Part shown: positions 2,955 through 33,355 of the stretch, piece by piece
Position numbering within the stretch: the stretch's first letter is position 1
Layout of the letters: each line of letters opens with the position of its first letter
Origin: a phage
Assembly (NCBI GenBank): GCA_012112355.1
Contig: GCA_012112355.1_3028.1
Length of the DNA: 64,000 bases
Direction: 5' to 3' (one strand)
Program-made: the position numbers and the translations under genes
Notes under the pieces: generated by a model
The model's database searches: none
What the model was told of the DNA's origin: nothing
What the model saw: only the letters and a program-made list of their open reading frames with translations

Positions 2955-5900
2955 ATGGCCGAGATTAAAAGAAAGTTCAGAGCAGAAGACGGTCTGGACG
3001 CAGGTGGTGATAAAATAATCAACGTAGCTTTAGCTGATCGTACCGTAGGAACTGACGGTGTTAACGTTGATTACTTAATTCAAGAAAACACAGTTCAACA
3101 ATATGATCCAACTCGTGGATATTTAAAAGATTTTGTAATCATTTATGATAACCGCTTTTGGGCTGCTATAAATGATATTCCAAAACCAGCAGGAGCTTTT
3201 AATAGCGGACGCTGGAGAGCATTACGTACCGATGCTAACTGGATTACGGTTTCATCTGGTTCATATCAATTAAAATCTGGTGAAGCTATTTCGGTTAACA
3301 CTGCAGCTGGAAATGACATCACGTTTACTTTACCATCTACTCCAATTGATGGTGATACTATCGTTCTCCAAGATATTGGAGGAAAACCTGGAGTTAACCA
3401 AGTTTTAATTGTAGCTCCAGTGCAAAGTATTGTAAACTTTAGAGGTGAACAAGTACGTTCAGTACTAATGACTCATCCAAAGTCACAGCTAGTTTTAATT
3501 TTTAGTAATCGTCTGTGGCAAATGTATGTTGCTGATTATAGTAGAGAAGCTATAGTTGTAACACCAGCGAATACTTATCAAGCGCAATCCAACGATTTTA
3601 TCGTACGTAGATTTACTTCTGCTGCACCAATTAATATTAAACTTCCGAGATTTGCTAATCATGGCGATATTATTAATTTCGTCGATTTGGATAAATTAAA
3701 TCCTCTTTATCATACAATTGTTACTACATACGATGAAACGACTTCAGTACAAGAAGTTGGAACTCATTCCATTGAAGGCCGTACATCAATTGACGGTTTC
3801 TTGATGTTTGATGATAATGAGAAATTGTGGAGATTGTTTGACGGGGATAGTAAAGCACGTTTACGCGTTATAACAACTAATTCTAATATTCGTCCAAATG
3901 AAGAAGTTATGGTATTTGGTGCGAATAACGGAACAGCTCAGACAATTGAACTTCAGCTTCCGACTGATATTTCTGTTGGTGATACTGTTAAAATTTCCAT
4001 GAATTACATGAGAAAAGGACAAACAGTTAAAATCAAAGCTGCCGGTGAAGATAAAATTGCTTCTTCGGTTCAATTGTTGCAATTCCCAAAACGCTCAGAA
4101 TATCCACCTGAAGCTGAATGGGTTACAGTTCAAGAATTAGTTTTTAACGGTGAAACTAATTATGTTCCAGTTTTACAACTTGCTTATATAGAAGATTCTG
4201 ATGGAAAATACTGGGTTGTGCAACAAAATGTTCCAACCGTAGAAAGAGTAGACTCTTTAAATGATTCTACTAGAGCAAGATTAGGCGTAATAGCTTTAGC
4301 TACACAAGCTCAAGCTAATGTCGATTTAGAAAATTCTCCACAAAAAGAATTAGCAATTACTCCAGAAACGTTAGCTAATCGTACTGCTACTGAAACTCGT
4401 AGAGGTATTGCAAGAATAGCAACTACTGCCCAAGTGAATCAGAACACCACATTCTCTTTTGCAGATGACCTTATCATTACTCCTAAAAAGCTGAATGAAA
4501 GAACTGCTACAGAAACTCGCAGAGGTGTCGCAGAAATTGCTACACAACAGGAAACTAATACAGGTACTGATGATACTACAATCATCACTCCTAAAAAGCT
4601 TCAAGCTCGTCAAGGTTCTGAATCATTATCTGGTATTGTAACTTTTGTATCTACTGCAGGTGCTACTCCGGCTTCTAGCCGCGAATTAAATGGTACCAAC
4701 GTTTATAATAAAAACACTAATAATTTAGTTGTTTCACCTAAAGCTTTGGATCAGTATAAAGCTACTCCAACGCAACAAGGTGCAGTAATTTTAGCAGTTG
4801 AAAGTGAAGTAATTGCTGGACAAAGTCAGCAAGGATGGGCAAATGCTGTTGTAACGCCAGAAACGTTACATAAAAAGACATCAACTGATGGAAGAATTGG
4901 TTTAATTGAAATTGCTACGCAAAGTGAAGTTAATACAGGAACTGATTATACTCGTGCAGTCACTCCTAAAACTTTAAATGACCGTAGAGCAACTGAAAGT
5001 TTAAGTGGTATAGCTGAAATTGCTACACAAGTTGAATTCGACGCAGGCGTCGACGATACTCGTATCTCTACACCATTAAAAATTAAAACCAGATTTAATA
5101 GTACTGATCGTACTTCTGTTGTTGCTCTATCTGGATTAGTTGAATCAGGAACTCTCTGGGACCATTATACCCTTAATATTCTTGAAGCAAATGAGACACA
5201 ACGTGGTACACTTCGTGTAGCTACACAAGTTGAAGCTGCTGCAGGAACACTAGATAATGTTTTAATAACTCCTAAAAAGCTTTTAGGTACTAAATCTACT
5301 GAAGCACAGGAAGGTGTTATTAAAGTTGCAACTCAGTCTGAAACTGTGACTGGAACGTCGGCAAATACTGCTGTATCTCCAAAAAATTTAAAATGGATTG
5401 TGCAGAGTGAACCTACTTGGGCAGCTACTACTGCAATAAGAGGTTTTGTTAAAACTTCATCCGGTTCTATTACATTCGTTGGTAATGATACAGTTGGTTC
5501 AACACAACCTTTAGAATCATATGAAAAAAATAGCTATGCTATATCTCCATATGAATTAAACCGTGTACTTGCTAACTATTTGCCATTGAAAGCTAAAGCC
5601 GTAGATAGTAATTTATTGGATGGTCTAGATTCATCTCAGTTCATTCGTAGGGACATTGCACAGACGGTTAATGGTTCACTAACCTTAACCCAACAAACGA
5701 ATCTGAGTGCCCCTCTTGTATCATCTAGTACTGCTACGTTCGGTGGATCAGTTTCAGCAAATAGTACATTAACTATTTCTAATACTGGAACGACTTCTTC
5801 TCGATTTACATTTGAGAAAGGTCCTGCTTCTGGTAGTAATGCTGATTCTGCATTGTATGTTCGTGTATGGGGTAATAAGTACAGCGGCGGTTCTGATGTA

Positions 5901-29044: not shown

Positions 29045-29521
29045 TTAAGCTTTACGAGGAGAAGCATAACGAGTGATTTCAGATTCTTCAACAACCCGGA
29101 AGTCACCTAAGAATACGATATTGTATAGCTTTTTACCGTCTTCAATCCATTGGTCTGTGATGAAGCCACACATCCTATCAGTTTTACTTGGACCAGCGAA
29201 ATCATCAATATAATCGAATTCTTCATCAGTTACAAATTCAACGCCTTTACACAACGCCCATTTAAATTGTGCATTAGACTCAGTGGATTCAACTTCTTCA
29301 ACAGAAGTAAAATGAGAGCTAACACGAGTTTCCAGAAATTTAGGACTTACGTAAGCGTACTGAGTTTCAGTTTTTCCAGAACTAGGAATGATTCGAACTT
29401 TAACTTCTTTAACACGACCAGTACCATTAGTACGAAGTCCTACCACTTCAACTAGACGACCTGCAGCTTTAGAACGAGATGCAGATGATACACGCTTAAT
29501 TTCACCAATATTAATAATCAT
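29045..29521 (-). CDS. paralog 2 of the same family
   Basis: 158 aa; FITDQWIEDGKKLYNIVFLGDFRVVEE; N-terminal SASRSKAAGRLVEV similar to paralog 1 (SVASRSKVAGKLVEV). Confidence 0.5.
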   Translation of the reverse strand: MIINIGEIKRVSSASRSKAAGRLVEVVGLRTNGTGRVKEVKVRIIPSSGKTETQYAYVSPKFLETRVSSHFTSVEEVESTESNAQFKWALCKGVEFVTDEEFDYIDDFAGPSKTDRMCGFITDQWIEDGKKLYNIVFLGDFRVVEESEITRYASPRKA

Positions 29522-29565: not shown

Positions 29566-29595
29566 ATTATACTCTGGTCCCAAGAGTTTGTAAAC
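29566..29595 (-). promoter_or_regulatory. T4-type early promoter (GTTTAC, 18 nt, TATAAT)
   Basis: Minus-strand sense GTTTAC-aaactcttgggaccagag-TATAAT upstream of paralog 2. Confidence 0.4.
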
Positions 29596-30032
29596 TAGCT
29601 TACACGAACATTAATCACTGCGCTGCGAGGAACTACAGAGTACTCTCCAGCATGAACTACGTTCAGAAGTTCAACACCATCTTCAATCCACTGATCAGTC
29701 ACCCATCCACCCACAGGATTCGCGAATGGACGACGAATATAAACTGCCTTACACAGCAGATCAGTTGGATCTTCAGGTTTTTCAATTTCTGTCAATAGAC
29801 TAAAATCTTTTTCATAAATAATAAGCGGTGATACCATTCCATAATAGTTTCTAATTTCAATATACATCATACCGATAAGAATTCCGCTATTAACACTAAT
29901 AACAGTAAAAGGATATCCGCCAGTTAAACCAAGAAGTTCACAAAACTTATTATGAGCTGTATTAGACAGTACCGAAAAATTCTTAATTTCATCAAATTTT
30001 TTCAATTGATAAACAGCATTATTTTTAATCAT
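29595..30032 (-). CDS. paralog 3 of the same family
   Basis: 145 aa; C-terminal WVTDQWIEDGVELLNVVHAGEYSVVPR. Confidence 0.5.
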   Translation of the reverse strand: MIKNNAVYQLKKFDEIKNFSVLSNTAHNKFCELLGLTGGYPFTVISVNSGILIGMMYIEIRNYYGMVSPLIIYEKDFSLLTEIEKPEDPTDLLCKAVYIRRPFANPVGGWVTDQWIEDGVELLNVVHAGEYSVVPRSAVINVRVS

Positions 30033-30618: not shown

Positions 30619-31302
30619 TTATCGTTTTGTTGGAAGAGACAGAGGATCGCATTCTTCCTCTGATGGAGCGTCTTCAAGACCCATAGCATAGCGCAAAGCA
30701 TACTTCATCATCAGGATGTCTTTCGCACAGTCATGAATGGAATCATGCGCAACGAATCCATTTAAAGTTCCCTTTGGAAGAGGACACGTGGTCATATCAC
30801 GAACAAGTAGAAGTGCTTCAATTCTAGTACGAATGTCGCGTTGATTCCAGAATTTACATGGTTCTAACTTAAATGTGTCAAGCTCATTCTCAGAAACGCC
30901 GTTAAGACGTTGAATATCGCGAATGAGATCGACTAAAATTGGAAAATCAAACGACATTCCACGGCACCAGCCTTGAGATTTCCAAGGATCGATATTATGC
31001 GCATTGATGTAATCATTAAATTTTGCAATACCATCGATAGTGCTTACATCTTCATCGGATGGTGCAATATTTTTTCTAGCTTCAGGAGATTGATTCTTCC
31101 ACCATTCAATAGTGCTTTTAGTAAAAAGACGATGTCCTTTTTGGCTTTTTAAATCAAATTTGATTTTAATGCCACGTGAAACTAATTCATCAAATGTTTC
31201 AACAACTTCCGGGTTAGGGTCAAAAGCAATTACAGCCAAATCAATAACAGCTGCTTTTTCACCGCTTCCCATTGTTTCAAAATCTATAATAAAATCAAAC
31301 AT
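30619..31302 (-). CDS. dexA: exonuclease A (DnaQ-like 3'-5' exonuclease)
   Basis: 227 aa as T4 DexA; MFDFIIDFETMGSGEKAAVIDLAVIAF (DxE exonuclease motif). Confidence 0.85.
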   Translation of the reverse strand: MFDFIIDFETMGSGEKAAVIDLAVIAFDPNPEVVETFDELVSRGIKIKFDLKSQKGHRLFTKSTIEWWKNQSPEARKNIAPSDEDVSTIDGIAKFNDYINAHNIDPWKSQGWCRGMSFDFPILVDLIRDIQRLNGVSENELDTFKLEPCKFWNQRDIRTRIEALLLVRDMTTCPLPKGTLNGFVAHDSIHDCAKDILMMKYALRYAMGLEDAPSEEECDPLSLPTKR

Positions 31303-31559
31303 TAAACTTTCCTCGCTAAATCGCGAATTTGGCCTACAGTATAGTCTTGAATATAAACTTTATTAATAGGCTCATCAATAAATTTTGCCATAGATTCAAT
31401 ATCTTTTTGTATCTCTTTAAGACTGTATACTATCTTTGAAGCTTTTTCGCGAATAGTAATATTTTCAGGACCTGGATTTTCTTCAATGACAGCTTTAACA
31501 TTTGTCATAAGAGATTTAAACTGGTACCAACTCAACTCAATCATTAATAATCGCCTCAT
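31302..31559 (-). CDS. hypothetical protein, member of a tandem ~85-aa array
   Basis: 85 aa; similar in size and residue pattern to the next ORF (Q-F..L....I.E....K....L.EI..D....F....K..I.DY..G.I..L). Confidence 0.45.
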   Translation of the reverse strand: MRRLLMIELSWYQFKSLMTNVKAVIEENPGPENITIREKASKIVYSLKEIQKDIESMAKFIDEPINKVYIQDYTVGQIRDLARKV

Positions 31560-31797
31560 AAAGATAGCTAATTTCGCCTAAAACGTAATCATTGATTGTA
31601 ACAGTTTTCACTTCACCGCAAAAGAATTCTAACGCAATTAAATCTCGTTCAATTTCTTCTAATTGAAGCATCAACTTATTAGATTCAATTTTTACAGTTT
31701 CACGATTTTTACCATGAGCAATTTCATAAATTTCGCTCACTTTATCTTGAAGCAGATAAAACTGATCTTTAGTTATTTCCACGAATAGCTTCCTCAA
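31537..31797 (-). CDS. hypothetical protein, member of a tandem ~85-aa array
   Basis: 86 aa; overlaps its neighbours by 20-30 nt. Confidence 0.45.
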   Translation of the reverse strand: MRKLFVEITKDQFYLLQDKVSEIYEIAHGKNRETVKIESNKLMLQLEEIERDLIALEFFCGEVKTVTINDYVLGEISYLYEAIIND

Positions 31798-32029
31798 ATT
31801 TAATTAGTAATTTACAGACACTTTCATCTAGTGTAATTACCGTATCTGTATTACTGTGATATGATTGTTTTTCAATTCGTTTAATTGCTAATATAGTATC
31901 ACTTATAAGATAAAGCTTATGAAGGAGCTCAGCTCCTGTTACCATAACATCGAGATTATCTTGCTTATTAGTATGCTTCCTTATACCATCTATTAGACGA
32001 TTTAAATATTTTGAATTGATGTTAATCAT
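31769..32029 (-). CDS. hypothetical protein, third ~86-aa ORF of the array
   Basis: 86 aa directly downstream of dda. Confidence 0.4.
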   Translation of the reverse strand: MININSKYLNRLIDGIRKHTNKQDNLDVMVTGAELLHKLYLISDTILAIKRIEKQSYHSNTDTVITLDESVCKLLIKFEEAIRGNN

Positions 32030-32035
32030 ATAGCC

Positions 32036-33355
32036 TCACACATAAAACACATCATAACGACCACGTGTTACACCAACATAAAGAAGTTGTTGAGCTAGTT
32101 CAGCATCTGCATAATGAATACAAGGCGTATAAATGAAAGCACGGTCTACAGACATACCCTGAGCTTTATGGAATGTTGATGCAGGAAGTGCTTTCACTTT
32201 ACTAAACTGTGATTTAGCATCCCAAAAATCACTCCACGGAGCTTTTCCGCCTTTGTTCCAATTTTTATAAGTTTCTGCCGTTTTACCTAAAAATAGGTTA
32301 AACTTATATAGCTCTTCATCAGATGAAATTATTTTAATCTTTTCACGATAATATTCATCATCGCCATAAGTTTCTACTGTTAAATCCCAATGACGAATTA
32401 AGTATTCTCCAGGAACACCACGAGCTTTAACAAAGGTTGATGTATACTCTGCTTCTATAATACGAACTAATTGTCCATTATTAAAAATAATTTCTGACAC
32501 AGGCTTTCCATCAATTTTATATGTTTTAATTAATGGTTCCTGCATTACAATAATTTCACCGACAATAAAATCTTTATCAGTTTCAAAAATCTTTTTACGA
32601 ATAATGCTATTTAACTTGTCAACAGATTTATTCGTAAATGCCATTACGCGATTTTCAAACAAATCATCTAAAGATTTGACGATTGAAAAATAATTTACCA
32701 TAAAATCGCGTAAAGCGGTATCACCAGTAAATCCACGTACTCCATGCCCGTCAACAACTTTATCATAAATCCACTTACCGTTACGAACGTCAGTAGCTAC
32801 ATCAATAATAGGAGCATTACTGCGTTTAACTTCAGTGAGTTCACACTGATAAAAATCTTTATGCGTAAAGAATGGACTGATATAAGCAGTATTTTCTCCT
32901 GGGTCAACAGGTCTAATTTGCTTATTATCACCTATTCCAATTATAGTACACCACGGCGGGATAGTTGAAAGCAGAATTTTAAATAGCTTTCTATCATACA
33001 TTGACACTTCATCGCAGATTAATACTCTGCATTTAGCTAAATCTGGTACTTCCTTCTGCTCAAAGAGGACATTTTCTTCATATGTTACCGGGTTAATTTT
33101 GAGAATACTGTGAATAGTACTCGCTTCTTTCCCTGATAGTTTTGAAAGAATCTTTTTAGCTGCATGAGTAGGAGCTGCTAAAATAATGCCAGTTTCGCCC
33201 GTAGATATTAAGGCTTCAATGATGAACTTAGTAAGAGTAGTCTTACCAGTACCAGCAGGTCCATTAATAGTTACATGATGTTTCTTTTCTTTAATAGCCC
33301 TCATAACAATGTTAAAGGCATTTTTCTGGCCTTCAGTCAAATCATCAAATGTCAT
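32036..33355 (-). CDS. dda: DNA helicase Dda (SF1B)
   Basis: 439 aa as T4 Dda; MTFDDLTEGQKNAFNIVMRAIKEKKHHVTINGPAGTGKTT (Walker A). Confidence 0.9.
   Translation of the reverse strand: MTFDDLTEGQKNAFNIVMRAIKEKKHHVTINGPAGTGKTTLTKFIIEALISTGETGIILAAPTHAAKKILSKLSGKEASTIHSILKINPVTYEENVLFEQKEVPDLAKCRVLICDEVSMYDRKLFKILLSTIPPWCTIIGIGDNKQIRPVDPGENTAYISPFFTHKDFYQCELTEVKRSNAPIIDVATDVRNGKWIYDKVVDGHGVRGFTGDTALRDFMVNYFSIVKSLDDLFENRVMAFTNKSVDKLNSIIRKKIFETDKDFIVGEIIVMQEPLIKTYKIDGKPVSEIIFNNGQLVRIIEAEYTSTFVKARGVPGEYLIRHWDLTVETYGDDEYYREKIKIISSDEELYKFNLFLGKTAETYKNWNKGGKAPWSDFWDAKSQFSKVKALPASTFHKAQGMSVDRAFIYTPCIHYADAELAQQLLYVGVTRGRYDVFYV

Follow-up and report, generated by a model that had tools for sequence, protein, structure and literature searches.

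Three tandem, anciently diverged paralogs in the dda-dexA slot of T6-type Tequatrovirus phages

Three short open reading frames (ORFs) follow one another between dexA and dda, at positions 31302-32029 of a 64,000-nucleotide (nt) stretch of phage DNA (contig GCA_012112355.1_3028.1 of GenBank assembly GCA_012112355.1), referred to below as the window. Their presence raises the question of what they encode, whether they are related to one another, and whether they were gained by one lineage or lost by others. An initial annotation, made from the letters of the DNA, had taken dexA and dda, without certainty, to be adjacent in T4, and had suggested the lineage-specific insertion of a small paralog family. 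Our analysis shows that the three ORFs are tandem, anciently diverged paralogs of a family of about 9.5 kDa, which occupies the dda-dexA slot of T6-type phages. The identity of the genes, their paralogy and the deletion polymorphism that affects them are, taken together, held here with high confidence; that the encoded proteins play a non-enzymatic, conditionally useful binding role is a tentative proposal, to which we give slightly less than an even chance. The locus itself is ordinary and already known: hundreds of T4-like genomes carry annotations of its genes, two of which are classic T4 ORFs.

Identity of the three genes

The dexA-dda region of the window shares 97-98% nucleotide identity with Tequatrovirus (T4-like) phages, and the array at 31302-32029 is 100% identical at the nucleotide level to phage teqhad; the window belongs to a Tequatrovirus genome. 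The genes follow one another on the minus strand in the order dda, ORF C, dexA.2, dexA.1 and dexA. ORF C, the third paralog (31769-32029, minus strand), encodes a protein of 86 amino acids (aa) with an isoelectric point (pI) of 7.9, has its Shine-Dalgarno (SD) sequence GAGG at 32034-32037 and belongs to phrog_4967; it bears no gene name and is annotated as 'hypothetical protein'. The following gene, dexA.2 (31537-31782, minus strand), starts with GTG behind the SD sequence GAGGAAG (31789-31795) and encodes an acidic protein of 81 aa (pI 4.4), and dexA.1 (31302-31544, minus strand) starts with ATG behind GAGG (31554-31557) and encodes 80 aa (pI 6.3). The name dexA.2 is used in the annotation of T4, KMB22 and Ac3, and dexA.1 in that of T4 and others. 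Compared with DexA.1 and DexA.2 of T4 (T4p015/T4p016; phrog_1700), the window orthologs are 95-96% identical in aa sequence, with the same position, starts and overlaps, and we found no difference of substance. Likewise, the T6 protein YP_010067170 (phrog_4967), encoded between dda and dexA.2, is the product of the same gene as ORF C of the window.

The initial annotation had described three consecutive ORFs of 85-86 aa overlapping each other by 20-30 nt. This holds for the maximal minus-strand ORFs (31302-31559, 85 aa; 31537-31797, 86 aa, starting with TTG; 31769-32029, 86 aa), whose overlaps measure 23 and 29 nt, but not for the annotated starts. The shorter starts, ATG at 31544 for dexA.1 and GTG at 31782 for dexA.2, have GAGG-type ribosome-binding sites ahead of them and agree with the annotation of T4, T6, KMB22 and Ac3; they are likely the biologically right ones. 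Measured from these starts, dexA.2 and ORF C overlap by 14 nt, and dexA.1 and dexA.2 by 8 nt (ATGATTGA).

In the 728-nt stretch, three runs of 80 codons or more are free of stops; composition shuffles contain 0.15 such runs on average and never more than 2. Pairwise ratios of nonsynonymous to synonymous substitution rates (dN/dS), for the computable pairs among 7-8 Tequatrovirus sequences, are 0.06-0.33 for dexA.1, 0-0.30 for dexA.2 and 0-0.26 for ORF C. Judged from the sequence, all three ORFs are real genes under purifying selection. The dexA.1 allele of phage Ac3 (301-543 of the compared stretch, the counterpart of window 31302-31544) differs at 56-60 of 237 nt (about 25%), with saturated synonymous sites and about 5-8 residues changed, and ORF C of Ac3 is nucleotide-identical to that of the window. 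This combination indicates mosaic recombination, whose breakpoints would lie at gene junctions.

Paralogy of the encoded proteins

The small paralog family suggested at first is borne out. The alignment of DexA.1 with DexA.2 spans 72 aa at 29% identity (E 1e-7, from a database of small size), and both proteins match the phrog_1700 profile (E 3e-43 and 4e-49, respectively). The I-DY-xG-I motif that had been noticed near the C-terminus of these first two proteins is indeed there, as I-x-D-Y-x-x-G-x-I (IQDYTVGQI in DexA.1 and INDYVLGEI in DexA.2), and ORF C harbors a degenerate version of it, TLDESVCKLL. ORF C matches phrog_4967 (E 8e-59) and not phrog_1700, and pairwise BLAST between ORF C and DexA.1 or DexA.2 gave no significant match. 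The pairwise alignment proposed in the initial annotation thus joins two of the three proteins, and ORF C is brought in by HMM, profile-profile and fold evidence. One further profile, phrog_5263, is matched by DexA.1, DexA.2 and ORF C alike, with E values of 1e-3, 1e-7 and 2e-5.

The searches with hidden Markov models (HMMs) were controlled by composition-preserving shuffles, whose maxima ranged from 11.7 to 14.4 bits. Against models of the DexA.1/DexA.2-type branch, ORF C attains 20.8-25.2 bits, a level reached by none of its 5,000 shuffles (maximum 13.5) and on a par with what DexA.1 itself attains against the profile free of Tequatrovirus. With all Tequatrovirus sequences withheld from the model, ORF C scores 25.2 bits; with Dhakavirus withheld as well, the scores are 22.2 bits for ORF C, 22.5 for DexA.1 and 32.3 for DexA.2. 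The hhalign comparison of ORF C with the family yields a full-length alignment (E 4e-5, probability 69%). The T6-type ORF C gene, which has no database link to DexA.1 and DexA.2, is here placed in the same family, distantly; this connection between the unnamed gene and the two named ones is not made by PHROGs. Against a paralog family, the initial annotation had set the prospect of related phages carrying the same three ORFs with no paralogy among them; relatives do carry the three ORFs, and paralogy is present.

In a neighbor-joining (NJ) tree, weak for such short sequences, DexA.1 pairs with the Dhakavirus protein (47% identity), DexA.2 comes next and ORF C is basal; the sequence relationships suggest that the duplications predate the genus Tequatrovirus. 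No DNA-level repeats were found among the three genes, which argues against a recent duplication.

Copy number and extent of the slot family

The synteny comparison does not bear out adjacent dexA and dda genes in T4: the T4 record (strain GT7) has dexA.1 and dexA.2 between them, and so has T2, whose match covers the dexA.1 and dexA.2 part only. T6 has all three genes in the slot, and W143-type phages have dexA.2 alone. The phage collection holds 497 Tequatrovirus records of DexA.2, 480 of DexA.1 and 309 of ORF C; across 60 sampled of the 309 records with the gene, ORF C is 91.7-100% identical in aa sequence. Neither tblastn nor a word-seeded search of 5.8 billion proteins detected relatives of ORF C outside Tequatrovirus, the latter returning close orthologs only, for ORF C and DexA.2 alike. 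In the record of phage Aplg8, dexA.2 bears an annotated 11-nt 'prophage attachment site (type HK022), confirmed by experiment' (1174-1184 of the compared stretch); in a virulent T4-like phage, this label is almost certainly an annotation artefact. The same record leaves the stretch that matches the position of ORF C (gap 1383-1637) unannotated.

Across Tevenvirinae, the copy number of the family in the slot ranges from 0 to 3, and the position between dda and dexA is kept in at least 10 genera. The slot is empty in PTE-Eco05 (Straboviridae), where dda and dexA lie only 9 nt apart; it holds one copy in Dhaka-, Gapriver-, Gelderland-, Winkler-, Kanagawa- and Muldoonvirus, two in T4-type phages, CkP1 and PM2, and three in T6-type phages. 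The slot proteins of the other Tevenvirinae (IME08 'dexA.1', ECML-359, S16 gp8.1, CkP1_0015/0014, PM2_013/014, CIP9 gp119, Vettismorki and PS2; phrog_5263) resemble those of the window in position, in their length of 70-85 aa, in full-length colinear alignment and in predicted fold, while their identity is only 15-47%. With the three genes present in T6 and in 309 Tequatrovirus records, and with relatives in the same slot of other genera, the lineage-specific insertion suggested at first does not hold.

Only 23 clusters came out at E <= 1e-3 when 1.84 billion cluster representatives were searched exhaustively with HMMER, and 22 of them are 51-85 aa long; the exception is a 3,357-aa protein without a matched stretch, and the Krischvirus cluster in the list is circular, since it was already in the query. 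A profile-seeded protein search mainly returned the seeds' own clusters. These searches outline a narrow family. Slot proteins of Acinetobacter and Aeromonas phages, Krischvirus, Pseudotevenvirus and Slopekvirus were considered as members and rejected, their scores being no better than those of shuffles. GAP161_021 is marginal (its score was reached by 11 of 2,000 shuffles), and the distant slot proteins give weak Foldseek matches, insufficient for a claim of membership. An unannotated 79-aa ORF of Krischvirus KFS-EC (about 2346-2589 of the compared stretch), situated between an annotated 55-aa ORF and dexA, was also rejected, having no sequence support as a DexA.x member. In Proteus phage ABTNLPp2 (Gelderlandvirus), the slot gene encodes only 38 aa (2364-2480 of the compared stretch), with an N-terminus 79% identical to S16 gp8.1; about 100 nt of non-coding DNA come after this fragment, which is apparently what is left of a pseudogene.

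A position kept in at least 10 genera could mean that the slot proteins serve Dda and/or DexA as dedicated accessory subunits or regulators, with paralogs tuning loading, specificity or stability. The overlapping start and stop signals, which imply coupled expression, would agree with such a role, and the purifying selection seen within the genus fits a conserved phage partner. PTE-Eco05, however, keeps both enzymes with the slot empty, and copy number varies from 0 to 3; T4 and T2 have lost ORF C, and W143 dexA.1 as well, with dda and dexA unchanged. Moreover, slot proteins of Tequatrovirus and Dhakavirus share 33-47% identity against 69% for DexA, that is, they diverge faster. We therefore regard a function tied to the two flanking enzymes as unlikely, and retain the proposal of conditionally useful binding proteins, which is developed in the Discussion.

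Loss of ORF C and dexA.1

In a DNA alignment of the window with T4, T6 and W143, the segment missing in T4, T2 and W143-type phages corresponds to window positions 31807-32038 (minus strand, 232 nt). It begins at the dda stop and ends 11 codons short of the stop of ORF C; in T6, a TGA triplet stands at either boundary. The 3' end of ORF C (31769-31806, minus strand) is kept in T4 as a non-coding spacer, as seen in the junction strings and the alignment: in T4 and W143, the dda stop is directly followed by TTAAATTTGAGGAAGCTATTCGTGGAAATAACTAA, identical to the last 35 nt of T6 ORF C. This retained relic of 35-38 nt, which reads IKFEEAIRGNN followed by the stop in ORF C, holds the ribosome-binding site and the GTG start of dexA.2. 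The relic codons encode part of a C-terminal helix that aligns with the C-terminal helix of the family, both in hhalign and in the AlphaFold2 (AF2) models, and ORF C would thus be older than the T4 junction.

The opposite direction of change, in which a T4-like ancestor with two genes recently acquired ORF C by insertion, would account for the confinement of ORF C to Tequatrovirus, with no relative elsewhere by word-seeded search, and for an array that is AT-richer than its surroundings (GC content of 0.30 for 31302-32029 against 0.35 for the whole window). It is hard to reconcile with a T4 spacer that retains the last 11 codons of ORF C and its stop, identical to T6, since these codons belong to the C-terminal helix of the family and the ORF therefore predates the junction. 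ORF C is, in addition, a family member, and the weak NJ tree places it basal to the DexA.1/DexA.2-type proteins. We thus consider a recent insertion improbable. The relic points to deletion instead of the insertion envisaged in the initial annotation, and the two-gene state of T4 and T2 is best read as a deletion derivative. As a modest evolutionary footnote, the reference phages T4 and T2 would then be derived, not ancestral, at the dda-dexA locus.

In W143, dexA.1 is removed exactly (243 nt) between two TTAATG start contexts, leaving dexA.2 overlapping dexA; the junction is found at 2480-2540 of the compared stretch. Pu-Krd-SF5 is among the few other Tequatrovirus phages without dexA.1. Copy number within Tequatrovirus would then change through precise deletions at short junction homologies, with ORF C lost in T4 and T2, and dexA.1 additionally lost in W143-type phages. 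Phage ime09 (JN202312) lacks 1 nt at the 8-nt overlap, which joins DexA.2 and DexA.1 in a single ORF of 159 aa (2961-3440 of the compared stretch). The fusion may be natural and hint at an interaction between DexA.2 and DexA.1, or it may stem from an error of sequencing; the 160-column profile of phrog_1700 probably owes its length to a fusion of this type.

Predicted structures

AF2 models were made for DexA.2 and ORF C, the alignment for the latter containing its own orthologs only. The DexA.2 model (predicted local distance difference test, pLDDT, 95; predicted template modelling score, pTM, 0.81) comprises a strand at residues 2-3, helices at 4-23 and 27-54, a strand at 59-60 and a helix at 64-78. 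In the ORF C model (pLDDT 85.6, pTM 0.76), the corresponding elements are a strand at 2-5, helices at 6-22 and 26-52, a strand at 64-67 and a helix at 69-84. The two models share the same strand-helix-helix-strand-helix topology of a three-helix bundle, to which DexA.1 is assigned by alignment.

When the ORF C model was compared by Foldseek with all viral proteins of BFVD, its own ortholog came first, followed by small proteins; the named matches from T4-like phages are those of fHe-Yen9-01, Henu6, CC31, BECP11 (DexA.2), CIP9, Cronus, Aeh1 and Acj9. The template modelling (TM) scores are 0.69/0.73 for ORF C against BECP11 DexA.2, and 0.69-0.88 for the best non-self matches to slot proteins. 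The DexA.2 model behaves like the ORF C model in this search. Other matches, which share the overall helical packing at no more than 19% identity and are without the pair of strands at the N-terminus and before helix 3, are functionally uninformative.

The three ORFs might still be unrelated ORFans of like size that share a generic helical composition. Three-helix bundles are common, PHROGs keeps ORF C apart in phrog_4967, and no significant pairwise BLAST match connects it with DexA.1 or DexA.2. Nevertheless, none of the 5,000 composition-preserving shuffles approaches the real HMM scores, the alignments are full-length and colinear, a small two-strand sheet is predicted at the same place in both models, and Foldseek preferentially returns slot proteins of T4-like phages from among all viral proteins. 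A chance resemblance is very improbable in the face of these observations, and we keep to the paralogy of the three proteins.

Neighbouring genes and expression

The upstream neighbour of the array, dda (32036-33355, minus strand), encodes the 439-aa Dda DNA helicase according to the ORF list and the annotation of matching records, and its TGA stop (32036-32038) overlaps the ribosome-binding site of ORF C. On the downstream side, dexA (30619-31302, minus strand), coding for exonuclease A (227 aa), has its SD sequence GAGGAAA at 31308-31314, inside dexA.1, with which it overlaps by 1 nt (TAATG). ORF C, dexA.2 and dexA.1 would each be translated from a GAGG ribosome-binding site of their own, embedded in the preceding gene, with overlaps of 1-14 nt. 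These embedded sites and overlaps make it probable that the three genes are co-transcribed and translationally coupled with dda and dexA.

In T4, dda.1, dda, dexA.2 and dexA.1 are reported to form one mid-infection transcript, with a single NAD-capped transcription start site upstream of dda.1 (bioRxiv 10.1101/2024.04.04.588121). A promoter and terminator scan inside the array gave no signal above chance, which is consistent with this single transcript, and an Rfam search of the array matched no RNA family. The DexA.2 protein has been detected in T4-infected cells, as a cGAS conjugate on Lys5 in the numbering of the annotated start (PMC10097602).

Further downstream, in the motB region beyond dexA, two ORFs at 29045-29521 and 29595-30032 (minus strand; 158 and 145 aa) have the C-terminal motif TDQWIEDG...L.N.V..G...VV in common and are probably MotB-like paralogs. 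Gene content between motB and motB.2 varies among T4, T6, W143 and ime09.

Domain searches, database labels and dispensability

Local scans of Pfam, NCBIfam and PADLOC gave no match at the family threshold, and a PDB sequence search returned nothing significant; the sole match in PADLOC, which contains defence-system models only, was sub-threshold and at chance level. DexA.2 homologs carry a precomputed Pfam tag, PF26837.1, in the protein database. The only invariant columns of the family alignment are M1, L41 and I44, all hydrophobic. The alignment contains no conserved polar constellation and no invariant acidic residue, and this absence of conserved polar residues argues against catalysis.

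Orthologs of DexA.1 and DexA.2 bear the GenBank labels 'exonuclease', 'dextranase', 'tail assembly protein' and 'tail sheath stabilizer', which derive from the locus name dexA.x by the propagation of names or through pipelines. A DEDD/DnaQ-type exonuclease was rejected on account of the 80-aa size, the lack of a Pfam or NCBIfam match and the lack of an invariant acidic residue. A dextranase, the label found on DexA.2, was rejected because Pfam and NCBIfam gave no glycoside-hydrolase match and the label tracks the prefix 'dex'. That the proteins are enzymes as labelled ('exonuclease', 'dextranase', 'tail assembly protein') has only database product names in its favour, and can be practically dismissed: the proteins are 80-86 aa long, nuclease and glycoside-hydrolase domains are absent from them, and none of their polar residues is conserved. 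The labels track the gene name 'dexA.x' or are artefacts of pipelines, and the T6 notes cite unrelated 'similar to' proteins. For all these proteins, 'exonuclease', 'dextranase' and 'tail assembly' are erroneous labels that call for caution.

CRISPRi-ART knockdown of T4 dexA.1 and dexA.2 was scored 'Not Fit', with no fitness defect (PMC11879866, supplementary file 15). The literature on the two genes offers no functional study, only proteomic detection, operon mapping and this knockdown without phenotype, and the text of the T4 HIDEN-SEQ paper makes no mention of dexA.1, dexA.2 or ORF C. Dispensability is also apparent from natural variants without one, two or all of the genes: T4 and T2 live without ORF C, and the slot of PTE-Eco05 is empty.

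Discussion

We propose that the three proteins are non-enzymatic binding modules, which would act early or in the middle of infection on conserved host or phage partners. Laboratory E. coli may be a host on which they are not needed, their benefit being limited to certain hosts or conditions, and the paralogs, with pI values of 4.4, 6.3 and 7.9, may have different targets. The low dN/dS within the genus points to a target that is conserved and does not evolve rapidly. For the whole explanation, in which the demonstrated part is joined to this proposed function, we estimate a probability of roughly 0.55.

Several observations weigh against this reading. A library-wide HMMER profile search did not recover ORF C, whose place in the family is supported by local statistics, a weak PHROG match and predicted structure. 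A second branch of slot proteins (PM2, CIP9, CkP1_14, PS2 and WSPA) is weakly linked to the DexA.1/DexA.2 branch, with an hhalign probability of 30%, and sequences of this branch were taken into the alignment from which DexA.2 was modelled, together with one unsupported Krischvirus ORF, which entered two alignments and is to be discounted. The fold is generic, and speaks neither for nor against particular activities. Finally, a low dN/dS within the genus is atypical of proteins engaged in a fast arms race.

A more specific version, which we hold to be unlikely, is that ORF C, DexA.2 and DexA.1 are modular, target-specific inhibitors of host factors or anti-phage defences, whose presence or absence would contribute to host range. 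If this were true, the loss of ORF C would explain some of the differences between T6 and T4 in sensitivity to E. coli strains or defence systems. The natural variants with 0, 1, 2 and 3 copies provide ready material for probing the role of this dispensable family.

Small non-essential T4 proteins of the early or middle period that act by binding host proteins are exemplified by AsiA, Arn and Dmd. No sequence similarity or specific similarity of fold was found between these and the DexA.x proteins. The two groups are nonetheless alike in size, in the timing of their expression, in their dispensability and in being free of catalytic motifs.

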